64,000 nucleotides of DNA from a virus, in the IMG/VR virus record IMGVR_UViG_3300009080_000001, positions 1-64,000 of that record; one strand, written 5' to 3'. The notes beneath the pieces were generated by a model. It was not told where the DNA came from. It made no database searches and saw only the letters and a program-made list of their open reading frames with translations. This document shows positions 4,067 to 22,945 of the stretch, piece by piece (within the stretch, counting starts at the first letter, position 1; every line of letters starts with the position of its first letter). Both the position numbers and the translations under genes were made by a program.

Positions 4067-5044
4067 TTACATACCCATAAAATCTTTCAAACTCATCTTT
4101 TTAGACGGTTTTTCTTCTTTAGATTCAGGTACAGACCCTTGTTTGATGTTATTTATAGTCTTAACTTGCTTCTGAGCTTGTTGTACTCTTTCTTCTCTTA
4201 AGTTATTAAGAATATCGTCACCTAATAGTGCTTTTAGAGCAGATGTAGACTTTAAAGATCCTGCAATAGTTCTGAACTTATTTTGAAGCTCTTGTTTAAC
4301 AGTCGGAAGTACATCCTTAGCTGTAACATCTTCCCATCCGTTCTGCATAGCCCATAGCATATTATCTGCTACCATAGCAATTACTTCTGGATTAGCTGGA
4401 AGTTCTTTATCACCTTCTAGAGCACCTAAAATATCAGTTTCGATCTCTTTCTCAACTTTAGCCATTTCAGCGTTTCTTGTTCTTTCTTCAGCATCTTTCT
4501 TAAGTCTTTCGTTCTCTTCTCTCATCTTTTGGATTTCAGAAGCTCTTTGCTCTTGTTCAATTTGCTCTGGAGATTTAGCATTTTGAGCTAAATGATTCTC
4601 AATTACTTGAGCTGCAAATGTAACAGGGTCAATATCTAACTCTTGTAATACTGCTGCTGTATCTGATTTAAGACGCTCAATATCGCCTTTATGAGCTTTC
4701 TGAGACTCTGCTAAGTGTTGCATAGCCTGACGACCAGCTAAAGCCATTTGAAGCTCTTTCTGAAGTCCTTCTTCATCATTAAGGTCAATCTGACGCTTAT
4801 ACTCTTTACCGTTTACTTTAAGTGTAAACTCTCTAAGCATTTCTTTAACTTCTTCTTCAGAAGCACCTTCTTCAATTGCTTGTTCTACTTCAGCTTTTAA
4901 CTCTTCTTCAGTTTCAGCTTGAACACCTTCTTCACTAGAAGCTTCTATACTTGATTCTTCTGATGCTTGAATTTCTTCTGATTGATTTTCTTCTGTAGAT
5001 ACTTCTTCTTCAACAGATTCCACTGCTGCGATTTCTTCACTCAT
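4067..5044 (-). CDS. Capsid scaffolding protein
   Basis: Acidic N-terminus, helical/coiled-coil, LKVNGKE motif, between portal and capsid. Confidence 0.7.
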   Translation of the reverse strand: MSEEIAAVESVEEEVSTEENQSEEIQASEESSIEASSEEGVQAETEEELKAEVEQAIEEGASEEEVKEMLREFTLKVNGKEYKRQIDLNDEEGLQKELQMALAGRQAMQHLAESQKAHKGDIERLKSDTAAVLQELDIDPVTFAAQVIENHLAQNAKSPEQIEQEQRASEIQKMREENERLKKDAEERTRNAEMAKVEKEIETDILGALEGDKELPANPEVIAMVADNMLWAMQNGWEDVTAKDVLPTVKQELQNKFRTIAGSLKSTSALKALLGDDILNNLREERVQQAQKQVKTINNIKQGSVPESKEEKPSKKMSLKDFMGM

Positions 5045-5104: not shown

Positions 5105-5425
5105 TTAGTTTTTTTCGTGTTTCTCTTGAGTATAATCTTTAGAGCAGATACCAAAAGTCCTGTCTCTAGATTCTCTTTTTAAATTTACTCCGAAAGATTC
5201 TAACTTAGATCTTGCTGTTCTTTTTAAAACATTTAGATTTGTATATTGTTTACTTTTAAAAACAAATTCTTTTGTTCTTTCGTTTCTGATACCATAGATC
5301 ATCTCTTCAAGGTTAAGTACTATTTTATATTTAGCACCAGTACGTTCTGATACATACTGGTTCAATGAAATAATGCAATTATCTTTAGTCGGATGATCGA
5401 CGTATCTAATCCTGTTTCCAGCCAT
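5105..5425 (-). CDS. Hypothetical protein
   Basis: 106 aa, coupled to portal stop. Confidence 0.6.
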   Translation of the reverse strand: MAGNRIRYVDHPTKDNCIISLNQYVSERTGAKYKIVLNLEEMIYGIRNERTKEFVFKSKQYTNLNVLKRTARSKLESFGVNLKRESRDRTFGICSKDYTQEKHEKN

Positions 5426-7533
5426 TAGCTACCGCCACTGTTCTTAGCCATAAGTTCGGCTGGATTAGTTGGCTGAGGAGGTAGTGTACCATCGCTTACT
5501 CCAGCAGGTTGAGCTGGTTGTGGTAAGTTCTGTGGTCCTAAATTAGGGTCCATCATCTGAGCTGGTCCACCATCAGGCATATTAGTTCCTGCTGGTTGTT
5601 GTGGAGCAGGAGCGTTACCTTGAGGTCCACCCGGCTGTTGCGGAGGTGGAGCTAGTGGTTGCTCTCCTATGATAGATAAAATATTCGGATCAGTAGTCTG
5701 TAATAAATTAATATGTTCTTGAATATGATCTAGTACCGATTGAACTAGTTCCGGATCTCTTCTTAGCATATAGTCAGAAAGTACTGATCTATGTTCTTTA
5801 ATATGTAATGAGTGATGGTCAGAGAATATAGCGATAACTTCTTCATCTCTTACTAGAGCTTCGTTCTCACCTTTAATAGTCATCATCTCGTCCATCTTAC
5901 CTTCAGTTAAGTAGTCAAGATTACCAGTATTCATAACCATTAAATATTTCTCAGGACTATCAATAAGTCCCATCTGTAAAAGGTTCTCTGCTACTTGAGC
6001 ACGACCTGCAGTAGTTTGCATTAATGCGTTTCCAACATCAACAACAACTCTGTTAATAGATTTAATATCGTCTGACTTAAACTCTTTCATTTCGGTCGAG
6101 TTATTTAGTCCGGAAATTGCAGCAATTCTAGGAACATTTGCAAAGTCTTTTAATAAGTTAATTAGTCCAGTTCCAACGCTTTCTAATAATTGAATATAAG
6201 ATTGCTGAAGTCCAGATACAAACTGTAATGCTTGTGACTGTACTAATGCTAATGCGTTACCTGATCTTAATGATTGTTCTGGATTACCTCTTGCAACAGA
6301 GTTTACACCAGAAAGTGTTTCCATAGTTTTCTCAAGAAGTGACATCAGTTGATATACTTCTGGAGATGTCTTTACTAAATCTAGAGGTTCTGGTTTACCC
6401 ATTCCCGGATCGTATTCAATAAAGTTCATACCTTCTGAAACCTGTTCAACAGAAACTCCGTTTCCTCTTGGGTTTAGAATGTTTACAACACCAAATGCGT
6501 TAACATTTGTTGCAGCCGTAGAATAGAGACTATTCAGCATATCTTGAAGTGGTAACAAATCAAACATGTCTGTATAGCCATATGGTGTTCCCATAATTTC
6601 ACTTGGAGTAATTCGATGCACTGGCAAGTCTCTATACGGCATTACGGTATCTTCCATGATAGCATCAGCGTCAGCATAAAGAACATAACGTCCATTAGGC
6701 ATTGACTCTGTTCGCTTATGAAAAAATTCATAAACTGGGATATCTTCGGTTTGTTCAATCGGGTGCGAAAGAACTCTCCTACTTCTTTTTTCTTGTTTAT
6801 CTTTTGTGTCTTGGCTTAACAGTTCTTCTGCAAGTTCTGGGTACTTGGCAGCTAAATCGAACTTGTTAATAAATGATCTACAAAGAACCCAATCGTTCTT
6901 CATATAATCTTCTTTCGTAACATCAAATACTACGTCAAATGGTGAGAGTAATGTAAATTCTACATCTCCTTCATAAATAGGAAAAGGTTTGAGTGTTTCA
7001 CCCTTCTCTCCTAAAGGTTCTCCGTCTTCATCATAGTCGTGGATGTCTTCTTCATCAACGTCAACATAGTCATAAATCTTGCCTTTGGTACTATTCCACT
7101 CTAATTTAATGTATCCTGAACCCAGAACAATGGCGTACTCTACGGCCTTCTTTATGATTGTCTCAAGCTTCATTTCACGCATGTAATAGTCCAGAAGTCC
7201 ATTTCCGAGTTCAGCTTGTAGTAGTGATTTTCTATCTGTATTGATAGCTCTACACTGGAAGCTAGGTCGTGTGCTTGTTACCATAACGTGAATATGTCGT
7301 GCTAAATTTCTATAGTGATTTACGGCTAAGTTTACAAGTTCACCTTGTTCTCCGCCTGTAGATAAGAAATGACCCTTACCATAGTATTGACCGTAATAAG
7401 CTTTCCAAGACCTTTTGATCTTGTCAATATAATCCGTATCCATAACACCTTTAAACCAGTGTTGTGACTTTCCGATCAATGTTTCTACGCATTTATCCGC
7501 TTTCTCAGCAGCGAAGTATTTCTCTCTACTCAT
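5425..7533 (-). CDS. Portal protein (P22-like)
   Basis: 702 aa after terminase; GSGYIKLEW, SPFDVVFD, LSGVNSVARG motifs; Pro/Gln-rich tail. Confidence 0.85.
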   Translation of the reverse strand: MSREKYFAAEKADKCVETLIGKSQHWFKGVMDTDYIDKIKRSWKAYYGQYYGKGHFLSTGGEQGELVNLAVNHYRNLARHIHVMVTSTRPSFQCRAINTDRKSLLQAELGNGLLDYYMREMKLETIIKKAVEYAIVLGSGYIKLEWNSTKGKIYDYVDVDEEDIHDYDEDGEPLGEKGETLKPFPIYEGDVEFTLLSPFDVVFDVTKEDYMKNDWVLCRSFINKFDLAAKYPELAEELLSQDTKDKQEKRSRRVLSHPIEQTEDIPVYEFFHKRTESMPNGRYVLYADADAIMEDTVMPYRDLPVHRITPSEIMGTPYGYTDMFDLLPLQDMLNSLYSTAATNVNAFGVVNILNPRGNGVSVEQVSEGMNFIEYDPGMGKPEPLDLVKTSPEVYQLMSLLEKTMETLSGVNSVARGNPEQSLRSGNALALVQSQALQFVSGLQQSYIQLLESVGTGLINLLKDFANVPRIAAISGLNNSTEMKEFKSDDIKSINRVVVDVGNALMQTTAGRAQVAENLLQMGLIDSPEKYLMVMNTGNLDYLTEGKMDEMMTIKGENEALVRDEEVIAIFSDHHSLHIKEHRSVLSDYMLRRDPELVQSVLDHIQEHINLLQTTDPNILSIIGEQPLAPPPQQPGGPQGNAPAPQQPAGTNMPDGGPAQMMDPNLGPQNLPQPAQPAGVSDGTLPPQPTNPAELMAKNSGGS

Positions 7534-8114: not shown

Positions 8115-9587
8115 CTATTTTTTTTCAAGTTTTAGCAGTTTCTTAATGAAATCAGCCGCTTGTGAGGCGTTTTTAGTCTTAAATTTAGGACTCATGAAGG
8201 TATTTTTGTTAATATCTAGTCCATAGTTCTCTGGAAACGGGTTTGTACCTAATCTTACGTTCCTAACTAAGTATATAAGCGCATCTAAAGCATCTCCATG
8301 TGATCTTAATAGTCCAGCAGAGTCGTTTCCTTTCAAATGCTTGAATTTACCTGTAAATGTTCCTTGTTTAGTATAGTGCCATTGAGTATATTTAAGATGG
8401 TATATAAGATTCTTACATCTTGGGTGTATTATGATCCTTTCAGATTCTACCCATCTTCTTACAGTATCAACAGCTTGCTCTTTATTATGTTTTTCAGTAG
8501 GCATGAAGTTCATACCATAAAACCTAGATAAATCGTTTATAAGCTTAAGGTCATTATCCATTACTCTTAAATAAGGCTTCTGCTTATCTCCGAGGGCCGT
8601 AACAAACCTCATCTCTTCTTTAACCATTATTTCTTTATGTAATTTGTCCGTTGTTAGTTCTGGACCATTAATAACGTATTCATCTGTAATTACTAGCTTA
8701 TTGAGCTTCTTATCATAGTACGAGAATAAGAATACAGTTAGATCGTGAAATCCAACATCTCCAGAGGTATAGAACTCACAATAATCTGGAACTTCCATAT
8801 CCTTAACTACGGACTCTTCTACGGCCGCAAATTCTGGGACTACGTTGGCTTCAGATACATTTGGAATCTCACACAAATACTCGCATCTAAATTTGACATT
8901 CTTCTCTCCACCCGGATACCTAGCTACAATCCTAGCTCTCTGCTCTTCAGAAACCATAGGCGATGTAGTGTAGTCAAACTTTAAAAGCTTTCCAGCAGCT
9001 TCTAGAGGGTTCACAAAGAACTCATGAAAGTCATGGTTCGGATCTTTGTCGTTTGGTGTGGATGCTAAATATATTTTACCACCAGTTGTATCGGTAGTAG
9101 GGGCAAGTACTGAATATACTACAGTCTCTAGCTCATCCATAAATCCTGCCTCATCACATATACATAAATCAGCCGATCCCCCACGGAGGTTATCGTAGTT
9201 TCCATTATCTGTACCTGCGACTTGTATTTCAGATCCATTAGGAAATAGCCACACCTTCTCTTGAGTCTTCCACTCCGGTTTCATATCCTCCGGACAGTTA
9301 GCTATGATCTCACGTATTCTAGGCTTTATAACCCTCTCAACCATTTTCTGTTGAGGACATGCATATTTTACAATAGCTCCGGGTTTTAGTAAGCAGGTTT
9401 CAATTGCCATAACACATAGAGTATACGACTTACCATACTGTCTGGATATCAGACATGCAGATATATCATCACCAGTATTGTTGAAATGTTTATAGATTTC
9501 TTTTTGATTACCCTTAAGTTTCCAAGAAAGTATACCTTCCCTCCAAAGAGCGTCAATTGCTTCTTCTTCGGTCATTTTCTTAGCCAT
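8115..9587 (-). CDS. terL: Terminase large subunit
   Basis: Walker A SRQYGKS, LRG..DLCICDEA Walker B, ASTP coupling motif, nuclease acidic residues (GDVG, DALDALIY). Confidence 0.92.
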   Translation of the reverse strand: MAKKMTEEEAIDALWREGILSWKLKGNQKEIYKHFNNTGDDISACLISRQYGKSYTLCVMAIETCLLKPGAIVKYACPQQKMVERVIKPRIREIIANCPEDMKPEWKTQEKVWLFPNGSEIQVAGTDNGNYDNLRGGSADLCICDEAGFMDELETVVYSVLAPTTDTTGGKIYLASTPNDKDPNHDFHEFFVNPLEAAGKLLKFDYTTSPMVSEEQRARIVARYPGGEKNVKFRCEYLCEIPNVSEANVVPEFAAVEESVVKDMEVPDYCEFYTSGDVGFHDLTVFLFSYYDKKLNKLVITDEYVINGPELTTDKLHKEIMVKEEMRFVTALGDKQKPYLRVMDNDLKLINDLSRFYGMNFMPTEKHNKEQAVDTVRRWVESERIIIHPRCKNLIYHLKYTQWHYTKQGTFTGKFKHLKGNDSAGLLRSHGDALDALIYLVRNVRLGTNPFPENYGLDINKNTFMSPKFKTKNASQAADFIKKLLKLEKK

Positions 9588-9940
9588 TACTTCTTACCTT
9601 CAACTATCTTCAGTAGATCCTTAACGTCAGCTTTCTTAACTTTCTTTTTAGAATCGTTACTAAAGCCTTTGATCATTCTGAGGTTTCTATGTAGTATGTC
9701 GTAATTCTGTATATCAGTCTTATCAGCTATCTTATTCTTAACAGCATCTAATATCTGTTCAATGCCTAAGATACATATCTCCTCTTCTGGAGTAATACTT
9801 TTAGTCTGACCAATCTCTTCTTCAAGACCGTTCTCTTCGATAACAGCTCTAAGTTCTTTATTTTCTTTCTCCGCTTGAGACAGTTCTTTCCTCAAAGCTT
9901 TAAGTTCCATCTCAAGTTCCATTATAATTAATTCATCCAT
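9587..9940 (-). CDS. Possible terminase small subunit
   Basis: 117 aa helical protein coupled to terL; position only. Confidence 0.4.
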   Translation of the reverse strand: MDELIIMELEMELKALRKELSQAEKENKELRAVIEENGLEEEIGQTKSITPEEEICILGIEQILDAVKNKIADKTDIQNYDILHRNLRMIKGFSNDSKKKVKKADVKDLLKIVEGKK

Positions 9941-11633: not shown

Positions 11634-11706
11634 AATATACTGAATAATATTTTATTTGTCAAATACTATTTTAATCCTTGACAGTACTTGTACTAACTGT
11701 TATCTT
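11634..11706. promoter_or_regulatory. Divergent sigma70-type promoters
   Basis: Minus: TTGACA (11662-57)-17-TATATT. Plus: TTGACA (11678-83)-17-TATCTT with ATG at 11712 (likely leaderless). Confidence 0.7.
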
Positions 11707-11711
11707 AGAGT

Positions 11712-11915
11712 ATGGCTAGGAAAAAGAAGAAAAAAATAGTTGAGACTCTGGGTCACGTAGTTGTGGCTCAGATTCCCATGATAATAACATTTGACGAAGA
11801 TCATGTAGAATTTGTTGCAGATTATTTAGAATCGGCTATGAATAGATCCTACGAGATAATAGACATGTTTGGTGATCTAGGGGGAGATTTTGATCCATTT
11901 GACGACGAGGGGTGA
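11712..11915 (+). CDS. Hypothetical protein
   Basis: ORF directly after promoter. Confidence 0.55.
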   Translation: MARKKKKKIVETLGHVVVAQIPMIITFDEDHVEFVADYLESAMNRSYEIIDMFGDLGGDFDPFDDEG

Positions 11916-15381: not shown

Positions 15382-15884
15382 GAGAATAAGTAGTGGGAAT
15401 AGCTGTAGGTATATTGTTAATAGTTAATATGTTTTGGATAATGCCGACATTATATAGAATTGAGAAGTTATTGGAGAGAAAATGAAAGGACATTACGAAG
15501 ACGATACTGACGCAAAGAGATTATTATTAACTATATTCTGTGTAGCCGCTATTTCAGGGCTATTAAGCGCATTTATTTATTAGGTGTATTATGATTGAAA
15601 ATGTTATTAAAAATATTTGGATTACAACTAGGATATTAGCTGGAGCCTTGACAATACTGGCGGCTATTAATCTATCAAATCAAGATATAATAGGAACATT
15701 ACCATTTATAAGTATTATTATATGTGGATTCTTTACAATAGCTAAACAACATGATTAGGTGTATTAACATAAATATACCCATATCTGTTTTCTGACACTA
15801 CTTTGACCAATACAACTGACTTAGAACCACATACCCCCCTACCCCCTAAATATATTTTGTTTACATAGAATATACGCACCTATC

Positions 15885-15996
15885 TTGGCATGGATCTTGC
15901 AGTAGCAATCGGAGTGCCACTCTCCACTGTAAATAATATTTATTGTATCGGCTATAAGACTTGGCACGGTACTTGCAGATGCATACCATATGCCAA
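15885..15996. promoter_or_regulatory. Four sigma54 (-24/-12)-like motifs in two convergent pairs
   Basis: TGGCAY-N5-WTGCW at +15886, -15919, +15962, -15995. Confidence 0.65.
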
Positions 15997-16444
15997 CACA
16001 TAGTGCCAACTATATATGGCAGCTCAGAATGCTCTGTGTCTGCGTTTGTGGGTATAGTGCTTATGATTGTATAGGTTAATTTCGGAGGCTTTACAGAGGC
16101 TATTCTGTACGTGTGAGGAGTCAAGGTTATTTATTAGATAGTAACATTGTTTATTAGCGAATTATTATATTGGTAATATGCGGATAGTTAGCGTATACTA
16201 GTATTAGGAAATGACACAACGTATTACGGGAGTTATATATGTTAATAGAGTGGATAGTCGGAGTATTATATGCAGTACTGAGTATGTTTGGTAAGGTTGT
16301 TTATATGATTGAAACGTATGTAAGTAGTGATAATTTAAAGTAATTTATTAATTCATCTAGTTATAGGAGGTGATAAACAGTATCTATTTAATATTTAATA
16401 CATCAAATACAAGTCTTAATTCTAAGCGGTCTAATTTAACCTAG

Positions 16445-16770
16445 TTATAAAGCCCCGATCATGGGGCGATCTACTTCAATAAGTTAATACATTTAAAAGG
16501 TTTGAAACAAGGCATTACTAAACTTTACTAGTATATAAGGACACTAGCCGAAAAGTAATGCTAAATAGATTATGTTTATGCCGATACGATAGTATCACTT
16601 TCTCTATTTGGCTTTTGCTGTAAAGCAATTTAGTTTAGAGGTTGAAGCGTTCCGCTTGAGTCTTTTAACAATCGTTTCTCAAGTACTCGTTATCTTAATC
16701 TGATGTGTTCCGAGCCTAGTCGTCATTCTTTTCGCAAAGCCGTGACATTTTTTAACGGTCTTCATTCTCT
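16445..16770 (-). ncRNA. Candidate late structured ncRNA
   Basis: Late motif upstream, many helices, terminator-like hairpin at 3' end, no substantial ORF. Confidence 0.5.
16447..16467 (-). terminator. Terminator-like hairpin
   Basis: GCCCC-ATGATC-GGGGC followed by TTTAT. Confidence 0.5.
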
Positions 16771-16774
16771 TATT

Positions 16775-16789
16775 ATATAGTTGTTAAAT
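16775..16789 (-). promoter_or_regulatory. Late promoter-like motif, copy 5
   Basis: Exact 15-mer with no convincing CDS downstream. Confidence 0.7.
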
Positions 16790-17170
16790 ATATTGTACGT
16801 ATCTTTTCCGTAACAGGTATTTATTTTCATTATTTCAATGATTACGGTTACTTAGTCTTATTAAAATAGCTACAATAAAATTACATGATGCCTGACTATA
16901 CTCTCCAGTTAGATACAGATATAATCCTAAACCTACATTAAGTAAAAATATTATATATTCAAATTTTTTCATAAATAAAAATTCCTTTATTAAATAGTCC
17001 CCAGAAGTCATCACAAATCGGGGGACTAAATAAGTTTAGTTGATGCGGTAGGCTTTACGCATCTTTGTCCAGTTGCCTACTCTAATAATATATCAAAATT
17101 ATAGGATTCAATCAAGAGCTAAATTAGCAAGTGTAAATATTACAATCGGTAAAAATTACATACTTTCATG

Positions 17171-17349
17171 AGGAATATACGCAACTGCCATAGATAGTTG
17201 GCTGTTCAGATTAGCTCAGGATTCATTTAAAAGTTTTTTGAAGGTGGTTATACACAGAACATTTAAAGAGCTTAGAAGCATGATTCTGTTACGATTAAGC
17301 CTATGAATAGTATTTATTTAGGGATTTTTTACAAGGAATATACGCAACT
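17171..17349 (+). repeat. 16-bp direct repeat AGGAATATACGCAACT (17171-17186, 17334-17349)
   Basis: Exact match; partial third copy near 15868. Confidence 0.7.
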
Positions 17350-17510
17350 AAAGAAAAATTAAGTTGACTAAATAAAATTAGTTGTTGTCAAGCTTTTTCT
17401 TGGGATTGTAAATATTACCTATCTAATTTTTAGATCATAGCTATCTAATTATTATATTTGTGTTTATGACACGATATGTTATTCTAGTATTAGAAAAGGA
17501 GTTAACAAAA

Positions 17511-21086: not shown

Positions 21087-21192
21087 ATTGTAAAATTTAC
21101 ACAGGCTATTGACGCAAGGTATCAAATAGACTATACTAGTAATAGGAAATAACTTAACAAAGTTGTTAGCACAACAAAAAAAGGAAATAACA

Positions 21193-21771
21193 ATGACTAA
21201 ACTATTCACAAGAAATTCAAAGTTAAAGAAAGCTGAGTATCATACTGTAAATTTTGGTATCCCTGCTTTAAAGACTTGTCCCGAAGCTGATAAGTGTAAG
21301 TCATTCTGTTATGCTAATAAAGGTGCATATACGTGGCCTGTAGTTAAAGCGGCCTATGAATTTAGATACCAAGCAACTAAGCAAACAGATTTTATTGAGG
21401 TTGCTGTTAGTACTTTATCTAAAATGAGAAAACTTGATGCTGTGCGTATACATGATTCTGGGGATTTTTACAACAAAGAGTACCTTTATAAATGGTTCGA
21501 AATAGCTCGAAATATGCCATCTAAGACGTTCTATGCCTACACTAAGAGGGTTAAGTTGCTTAAGGATAACGAGGCTTTAAAACCTAGTAACATGGTTATT
21601 ATATATTCATTAGGTGGTAGAGAAGATAGCTTGATTGACCAAAAAGTAGACAGGCATAGTAAAATTTTCAATAACCTTGAAGAATTAGAAAAATCAGGGT
21701 ATATTGATACTAGTAAGAACGATAGCAATGCTATTAAAGATAATCACAAAGTTGGATTAGTATTACATTAG
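21193..21771 (+). CDS. GP88-like protein (Cys motif, radical-SAM-like)
   Basis: TCPEADKCKSFCYA; VRIHDSGDF; YAYTK. Confidence 0.7.
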   Translation: MTKLFTRNSKLKKAEYHTVNFGIPALKTCPEADKCKSFCYANKGAYTWPVVKAAYEFRYQATKQTDFIEVAVSTLSKMRKLDAVRIHDSGDFYNKEYLYKWFEIARNMPSKTFYAYTKRVKLLKDNEALKPSNMVIIYSLGGREDSLIDQKVDRHSKIFNNLEELEKSGYIDTSKNDSNAIKDNHKVGLVLH

Positions 21772-22627: not shown

Positions 22628-22945
22628 ATGGTTACACTAGAATATAAGTTAAAAGGCAATGAATTTAAACTACTCCAGTACTTAAAAACTTTAGATAATA
22701 TTAAATCTCAAGGTGATATGGCACAGGATTTGTATATGAGTATCAGGACTGTAAGAGGTACTTTAAAGACATTAAAAGAGTATAATGTTATCGAAGTAGG
22801 CAAGTCCGGTGTTAAGGTTAATGATATTAGTTTATGGGATTTAGAAGCTTATACTACAAAGAAGTTTAAAACAGAATTGCCTAAATTAATAGCTCAAGAG
22901 GAGTTGGAAAATGGAAATAAAGAAGAGTCGGAAGTTACTAATTAA
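22628..22945 (+). CDS. Winged HTH DNA-binding protein
   Basis: SQGDMAQDLYMSIRTVRGTLKTL..NVIEV. Confidence 0.7.
   Translation: MVTLEYKLKGNEFKLLQYLKTLDNIKSQGDMAQDLYMSIRTVRGTLKTLKEYNVIEVGKSGVKVNDISLWDLEAYTTKKFKTELPKLIAQEELENGNKEESEVTN

Follow-up and report, generated by a model that had tools for sequence, protein, structure and literature searches.

Sigma-54-type sites in a marine phage genome

An uncultured tailed phage from marine metagenomes, with a complete genome of 84,758 bp, carries four sites closely resembling the binding sequence of the bacterial sigma factor RpoN (sigma-54). The sites are packed as two facing pairs, each pair a 34-bp palindrome, at the very start of the ORF-poor gap that follows the first rightward gene block. 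Judging from sequence and context, we tentatively favor the reading that host sigma-54 polymerase would dock at these palindromes and stay closed there; the cluster would then serve as a boundary or to occlude transcription, and not as a promoter.

We call 'the window' the whole stretch of DNA that was analysed, 64,000 nt long (positions 1 to 64,000 of IMG/VR record IMGVR_UViG_3300009080_000001). The RpoN consensus is TGGCAC-N5-TTGCW, as seen at the -24/-12 promoters glnAp2, pspA and nifH. A scan of the window with the pattern TGGCAYN5WTGCW gave exactly 4 matches against 0.16 expected by chance, a number that was reached in 0 of 100 shuffles; the whole genome has the same four TGGCAY-N5-WTGCW matches and no others. 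All four fall within 111 bp, on the strands and at the positions that a first-pass annotation of this DNA had assigned to them.

Site 1 (TTGGCATGGATCTTGCA, parsed as TTGGCAT-GGATC-TTGCA) occupies positions 15885-15901 of the + strand, with the core match at 15886-15901; it is faced across a 2-bp gap by site 2 (TGGCACTCCGATTGCT, TGGCAC-TCCGA-TTGCT) at 15904-15919 of the - strand. Site 3 (TTGGCACGGTACTTGCA, TTGGCAC-GGTAC-TTGCA; + strand, 15961-15977, core match 15962-15977) has a perfect core and is faced, again across 2 bp, by site 4 (TTGGCATATGGTATGCA, TTGGCAT-ATGGT-ATGCA; - strand, 15980-15996, core match 15980-15995). Perfect TGGCAC-N5-TTGCW cores were seen in two of the four sites, and a T precedes TGG in three of the four.

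The coordinates bear out both 2-bp gaps and the start-to-start distance of 76 bp between the two palindrome units, as annotated. What had been described as a 76-bp period holds as an offset but not as a repeat unit, as the two units are identical at 24 of 35 palindrome positions and at 13 of 41 spacer positions. With the spacers unrelated and the motif positions kept, the motif appears to be maintained by selection and not to be the trace of a recent duplication; the same spacer identity ruled out a tandem duplication as the origin of the 76-bp spacing. Over the site, the contigs of four marine metagenomes agreed with each other and showed no variants, and so are uninformative on conservation.

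Transcription starts were predicted by taking the C of the GC doublet as -12. The predicted positions are near 15912 for site 1 and 15893 for site 2, and near 15988 for site 3 and 15969 for site 4. Each palindrome has a divergent pair of predicted starts, separated by about 19 bp; the promoters interleave and their predicted melted regions abut. The earlier description of convergent sites with overlapping melted regions was thus right about sites facing each other at close distance, but not about the direction of the promoters or the overlap of the melts. As a holoenzyme bound at one site would cover the recognition elements of the other, one palindrome is expected to hold one holoenzyme, in either orientation.

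Position of the cluster in the genome

The large terminase gene (8115-9587) and the portal gene (5425-7533) are on the - strand, and the leftward packaging and structural operon begins near 11.4 kb. On the other side of the divergent junction at ~11.5 kb, a rightward block of small ORFs extends from 11712 to a stop at 15758. The genes for rIIA, primase-helicase and a family A DNA polymerase are all on the + strand. The GC skew turns at ~12 kb, where the gene strands switch, and not at the cluster.

At 11657-11714 we observed a TTGTCA followed by a consensus TTGACA-17-TATCTT that stops 5 bp short of the ATG (11712). This places what may be a strong sigma-70-type promoter so close to the first early ORF that the mRNA of this ORF could be leaderless or nearly so. 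A Shine-Dalgarno core was found in 51% of ORFs against a background of 12%. The use of Shine-Dalgarno sequences, together with the TTGACA early promoter, suggests a host outside Bacteroidota and points to no specific host. Protein similarities give conflicting host clues: the DNA polymerase shares 45% identity with a Flavobacterium phage enzyme, and the terminase distantly resembles (~24% identity) the terminases of T5-like phages, which infect Gammaproteobacteria.

The ORF-poor gap (15760-17460) is AT-rich, with 29% GC. The remark that no clear gene follows the sites was confirmed: there is no + strand ORF of at least 40 aa from 15758 to 17460. The + strand sites of the cluster are followed by 1.46 kb without such an ORF, and the - strand sites face antisense into the early genes. 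The cluster and the gap behind it had no Rfam family match and no tRNA, and blastn of the region against GenBank phages gave no match. Pfam searches with ten flanking ORFs (eight early ORFs, one just past the gap and one beside the large terminase gene) were uninformative; no DNA-binding domain was seen in the early ORFs.

Directly after the stop of the last early ORF at 15758, the + strand has a C-rich, G-poor tract (15757-15860), a rut-like 'C>G bubble'. C minus G, which has a background of -7 +/- 5.5 on the + strand, rises here up to +23 per 80 nt; positions 15780-15859, with 25 C and 6 G, make the strongest such stretch of the 44-kb rightward block (11.5-55.5 kb). A rut site of a Rho-dependent terminator is an untranslated, C-rich and G-poor stretch of ~80 nt; 15780-15859 is a stretch of this kind and a putative rut site. 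Such a tract also stands directly upstream of the sigma-54-like cluster in three relatives (L142, L141 and L011).

Between the C-rich tract and the first palindrome there is a lineage-specific conserved box on the + strand (box 1, 15857-15882) with the core GAATATACGCA at 15868-15878. This core has three exact copies in the window, all of them on the + strand and inside the 15.8-17.4 kb gap; box 2 (17173-17183) is followed by a TGCCA-N8-TTGGC element that extends to 17202, and box 3 (17336-17346) is ~115 bp ahead of the next + strand gene block. The box is conserved in relatives L141, L142 and L336, and it adjoins the sites in the first two. Its sequence does not match a -35/-10 arrangement for sigma-70; it could be a promoter or an operator specific to the lineage.

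A further half-site annotated at 16003-16009 turned out to be part of a TGCCA-N8-TTGGCA element on the - strand (16004/16005-16022), made of two -24-like pentamers placed tail to tail. As an 18-nt unit (16005-16022) it is an inverted copy of 17185-17202, with 94% complementarity; the element is also found after the box in L141 and L336. Farther into the gap, two conserved non-coding blocks (+ strand, 16521-16845 and 16991-17242) are 75-78% identical to L141 and contain no + strand ORF longer than 36 aa. With their hairpins (16645-16657, 16990-17033 and 17046-17064) and a conserved sigma-70-like TTAACG-18-TATAGT, these blocks are candidates for small RNA genes or a replication origin.

Conservation among relatives

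Counting sites inside the cluster out of all sites of a genome, we saw 4 of 4 in this phage (G000), 6 of 7 in relative G005 and 5 of 5 in relative G006, the five sites of the latter (locus L220) lying within 150 bp. A complete 78.8-kb relative, G001 (locus L142), with a GP88-like protein 69% identical, has three syntenic sites in the order -, +, -; a palindrome among them, with a gap of 1 bp, borders on a C-rich tract and has the same box after it. In the closer fragment L141 (81%) there is one site, adjoining the C-rich tract and the box. More distant relatives (L023, L011 and L027, terminase 39% identical) have a leftward packaging operon, a short rightward ORF block and a ~1.07-kb gap, and in this gap six sites stand behind a C-rich tract. 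Conservation in relatives had been proposed as a check on the annotation; the cluster is indeed kept at the syntenic place in these relatives, but fragments G003 and G004, the latter with boxes, have no strict site.

Four additional sites were observed in G001 at 9775, 13776, 14838 and 17872, all on the gene strand and inside early or middle ORFs, far above chance. Their counterparts in the window are one-mismatch versions only, at 22719 and 26392.

By sequence comparison, the cluster at the head of the gap is conserved across deep divergence, while the number, order and exact position of its sites turn over. Such turnover fits selection for occupancy and not for a fixed promoter geometry. The sites are upstream of the box in L141 and L142 and downstream of it in this phage; this difference in order argues against one fixed occlusion geometry. 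Used as a probe, an exact 22-mer from the gap recovered the contig of L141 only; a box-plus-TGCC pattern had 23 matches, about the chance level, with L336 as the sole true relative.

Distribution of the palindrome class

A scan of IMG/VR for the exact 34-bp palindrome found at least 119 stretches; by a hand estimate, the number expected by chance in a collection of this size is below one. Palindromes with a variable gap, often forming arrays, were present at no fewer than ~280 IMG/VR loci (L005-L306). In 596 Gb of bacterial and archaeal genomes there were 15 palindrome matches, and several of these were on short contigs in metagenome bins that had whole arrays and resembled phage DNA. A literature search found no paper on these sigma-54-site palindromes or arrays.

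One could think of the window cluster as a product of chance or as a set of decaying, functionless remnants; turnover of site number and position among the relatives, as well as the boxes without a strict site in the G004 fragment, would agree with that. We give this explanation hardly any weight, as four sites in 111 bp stand against 0.16 expected per 64 kb, the motif was kept while the inter-palindrome spacer is unrelated, and the palindrome recurs at viral loci in numbers (at least ~280) to be set against a hand-computed chance value below one.

Among the matches listed, inner gaps of 2, 3, 4, 5 and 1 bp were seen in roughly 33, 22, 14, 17 and 5 of the 119 contigs, respectively, a gap of 0 bp in none, and each gap length from 6 to 24 bp in one to four contigs. 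Clusters reach ten half-sites (over the ~280 loci, among the matches listed). Half-sites are preferentially spaced by 2 bp when head to head, by 10 or 20 bp when tail to tail and by 10-12 bp when in tandem; centre-to-centre packing is 18-28 bp, and some arrays have a period of 26-28 bp. The palindrome-bearing contigs range from 22 to 66% GC, and their large terminases fall into at least 30 clusters at 40% identity. No protein family common to most of the ~280 loci was found beyond terminase and portal, the next best being present in at most 51 of 280.

A GP88-family protein (PF17338) is encoded near arrays in 30 loci and also in the window, at 21163-21771. In 27 of 280 loci a phage-encoded sigma-70-like factor (weak PF04542 match, phrog_1740) was seen a few kb from the arrays, e.g. 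L012:9884-10540 on the - strand. Two loci, L126 and L135, are short contigs of a Leptospira yanagawae isolate assembly that have the 34-bp palindrome plus further sites; their source may be a phage or plasmid-prophage whose host can be cultivated. Leptospira has rpoN. The C-rich tract was considered as a general companion of arrays and dropped: class-wide, z>2 was observed in 15% of upstream flanks versus 5% of downstream flanks, a weak trend only.

A large terminase gene was within the fetched flank in 129 of 280 loci (among the matches listed). The array is upstream of this gene in 124 of the 126 scorable loci, at a median distance of 1.3 kb, and in one lineage it is directly before the small terminase gene. 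In 80 of 115 arrays, the site closest to the terminase gene is directed away from this gene; on this ground a late promoter for the terminase operon was rejected. Furthermore, in 16 of 34 whole-contig loci the palindrome is no more than 750 bp from a contig end (hand count, among the matches listed), more than a uniform spread would give.

Closeness to terminase genes and to contig ends could be taken as a sign of a cis site for DNA handling (a pac or cos array, an injection-stop signal or a replication origin), with RpoN or a phage protein in the role of an architectural factor. One cluster per genome in the lineage, the AT-rich gap after the cluster and the consensus sites inside terminal repeats of cultured Vibrio T5-like phages (see below) go in the same direction. 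Still, this role seems quite improbable to us. Terminase recognition arrays such as lambda cosB are situated beside terminase genes, but the window cluster is 6.3 kb from the terminase gene, beyond the divergent junction, and different terminase families are unlikely to share one recognition motif. As to an origin, no initiator gene or DnaA-box array was seen beside the cluster, and the GC-skew turn is elsewhere. For other lineages, the class-wide position of the arrays makes a role in packaging or at termini more plausible. A marker of the border between transcription units would fit the terminase-adjacent and the boundary settings alike.

The putative reader of the sites

In 246 half-sites of other phages we considered the positions left free by the search pattern: T precedes TGGCA in 66% of them, G or A follows in 98%, then comes a purine in 74%, and the spacer is T-rich. 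These preferences agree with the extended RpoN consensus reportedly described by Barrios and co-workers in 1999. In array zones the N5 spacing was observed 1115 times, N4 0 times and N6 5 times; outside arrays, sites with N5 are about twentyfold commoner than sites with other spacings. Both marks of a sigma-54 element, the GG-N10-GC doublet spacing and the extended flanks, are thus present.

The N5 spacers of the two halves are 31% complementary. As the spacers do not pair, the element should be read as duplex DNA by a protein and not as a hairpin. Three other kinds of element were tried and rejected: a hairpin or RNA element (spacers not complementary, no Rfam match or tRNA), sigma-70 promoter mimicry (TAnnnT at a 17-bp spacer in 4%, no fixed -10/-35 in the flanks) and a PeSL-type stem-loop cassette (31% spacer symmetry, no -10/-35 at a fixed offset).

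The motif shows no drift over the whole range of GC content and terminase clusters given above, which fits a universal host factor and not a co-evolving phage protein. The reader of the sites is probably RpoN, most likely in the form of holoenzyme, as the motif statistics suggest. In the phage genome, Sigma54_DBD had no match even at E<=1, and Sigma54_activat (PF00158) had no match; a phage-encoded sigma-54 or activator was rejected for lack of these domains. An activator could possibly be supplied by the host. On general inspection, no conserved activator dyad was recognised at 80-150 bp.

It is conceivable that the likeness to RpoN sites is incidental and that the palindrome is an operator of a phage-encoded dimeric DNA-binding protein (a repressor, a partition-type protein or another binder of a cis site), or is bound by a small protein with a sigma-54-like fold. 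The dyad unit, the phage-specific arrangement and the dense packing are in line with such a protein; the 26-28 bp period of some arrays suits a smaller protein better than the 450-kDa holoenzyme. In addition, TGGCA pentamers are also present in the lineage-specific tail-to-tail element beside the conserved box, and gp2 of Pectobacterium phage Q19 has a weak HHpred likeness to sigma-54 (PMC7693777). However, the inner gap varies between 1 and 5 bp, more than one would expect of a rigid dimer, and the agreement with an RpoN site extends over eleven core positions, three free ones and the exact N5. The motif does not drift across GC contents and terminases though the loci share no candidate binder, and in this phage neither the Sigma54_DBD search (E<=1) nor the early ORFs, in which Pfam showed no DNA-binding domain, offer one. 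An operator of this kind is, in our opinion, unlikely.

Closed complex or promoter

No bacterial sigma factor other than sigma-54 is known to keep RNA polymerase locked on DNA. Each palindrome would offer the sigma-54 enzyme a near-consensus -24/-12 site in either orientation, the two orientations being mutually exclusive. As the holoenzyme binds without melting and the phage supplies no activator, we infer that sigma-54 holoenzyme would sit on the palindrome as a closed, parked complex. The cluster is the sole one, it stands at the exact end of the first rightward block, after the rut-like tract and beside the box; from this setting one could deduce a role in cis, in which the cluster possibly limits or times how transcription leaves the early block for the gene-poor gap and the replication genes.

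Inactive occupancy of this kind is known: in vivo, sigma-54 holoenzyme is found on its sites without being active there (Bonocora et al. 2015, PMC4591121). In E. coli, single intragenic sigma-54 sites had no roadblock effect, and expression of the genes that contain them was not lowered (PMC4591121). This weakens a simple roadblock model; blocking would need a double site or help from Rho. Sigma-54 holoenzyme also represses sigma-70 transcription by competition at overlapping promoters, with C at -12 acting as the locking base (Schaefer et al. 2015, PMC4551910).

Several features argue against ordinary promoters: no gene is downstream, the lineage has one cluster per genome and not a site ahead of every operon, orientation is near random, packing is dense, and the palindrome is rare in bacteria. 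Also, the half-sites are too close for simultaneous productive complexes. The view of the first-pass annotation that the sites form an RpoN-type binding device rather than ordinary promoters fits the exact core with N5, the extended consensus, the missing downstream gene, the single cluster and the phage specificity; the sponge, the roadblock and the packaging signal that it proposed stand as candidate functions.

The palindromes might nevertheless be genuine bidirectional sigma-54 promoters, opened by a host enhancer-binding protein and acting as an early-to-middle switch; rightward transcripts would then enter the gap and the replication genes, and leftward transcripts would be antisense to the early genes. 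The near-perfect -24/-12 cores are what such promoters would have, and the predicted divergent starts ~19 bp apart follow the logic of symmetric sigma-70 promoters (PMC12825309, PMC10268837). Elsewhere, 21 of 64 palindromes are between divergent ORFs (by crude ORF calls), the four further + strand sites of G001 are co-oriented with genes, and for phage YuA a sigma-54-like promoter with experimental support is on record (PMC10914365).

We find this explanation doubtful. In the window, neither the gene nor the RNA expected downstream of a sigma-54-dependent promoter was seen: rightward there is no ORF of at least 40 aa within 1.46 kb, and the left side is antisense to genes. A symmetric bidirectional promoter would have divergent genes on both sides, but the flanks here carry + strand genes or none. 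The phage encodes no activator, and the upstream dyad of an activator was not recognised on general inspection. Two to ten such promoters in tandem at 18-55 bp spacing make little sense, and class-wide orientation is near random; even for lone sites of the 280 loci, co-orientation with genes is only weak (52 versus 36). Finally, sigma-54 promoters are in wide use among bacteria, yet the palindrome is all but missing there (15 matches in 596 Gb).

The parked complexes of the favored reading could have a further consequence in that arrays may titrate scarce host sigma-54, as a DNA-based sigma-factor sponge and copy-number timer; we see this as a rather remote prospect. There are only about a hundred sigma-54 molecules per E. 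coli cell. Early on, parked sigma-54 polymerase would be present on all phage copies, and transcription across the boundary would be blocked or occluded. As replication proceeded, sites would outnumber the factor, occupancy per genome would drop and downstream genes would be released in step; meanwhile, the host sigma-54 regulon (phage-shock, RNA-repair, nitrogen and flagellar genes) would be starved. We know of no precedent for a sigma-factor sponge or copy-number timer on DNA.

If it is true that many phage lineages evolved dense, orientation-free arrays, then the sigma-54 lock is exploited beyond classical gene activation. Possible uses would be insulation of temporal gene classes, sequestration of a host factor in control of stress responses and marking of a unique cis-acting locus; each would amount to a novel form of interplay between phage and host in transcription.

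Comparison with known systems

Among cultured phages, the 7,769-bp terminal repeat of Vibrio phage phi 3 (KP280063.1) contains consensus sites at 4415 (+) and 7336 (-), and Vibrio phage Bennett (MN958086.1) has sites at 141 and 3331 in the terminal repeat, both against the local genes. As in the window, near-perfect sites are concentrated in the first-expressed (pre-early) region of a lytic phage; unlike the cluster described here, the sites of phi 3 and Bennett are single and not palindromic. The terminal repeat of T5 has no sigma-54-type site. No site was found in Pelagibacter phages HTVC115P and HTVC103P, which are related to one array-bearing lineage; a single lone site was seen in each of CRP-1, CRP-9, HTVC033P, HMO-2011 and Flavobacterium phage immuto, likewise isolates with relatives among array-bearing lineages.

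Use of a host sigma-54 sequence by a phage is also described for P015 of Pseudomonas phage YuA (Ceyssens et al. 2008, as cited in PMC10914365). P015 is one directional promoter with a mapped start, whereas the element considered here is a gene-less palindromic cluster.

Symmetric sigma-70 promoters (PMC12825309, PMC10268837) are likewise pseudo-symmetric, with mutually exclusive orientations and divergent starts ~18-19 bp apart; in contrast, the sites described here correspond to a different, activator-requiring sigma factor, and they are not placed between divergent genes in the window. The promoter-early stem-loop (PeSL) cassettes of T4-type phages are, like the palindromes, repeated intergenic elements of early regions; unlike them, the palindrome forms no stem-loop and has no sigma-70 promoter at a fixed offset.

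Bacterial -24/-12 promoters (glnAp2, pspA, nifH) share with the phage sites the same core, the GG-N10-GC spacing and the flanking preferences. The phage sites differ from them in forming facing 34-bp palindromes with no downstream gene and no recognisable enhancer or activator gene. The inactive or repressive sigma-54 sites of E. coli also match the consensus; there, bound non-transcribing holoenzyme was demonstrated, while here binding is predicted. The inactive sites of E. coli are single and scattered, many of them intragenic, whereas the phage sites are palindromic and come in arrays.
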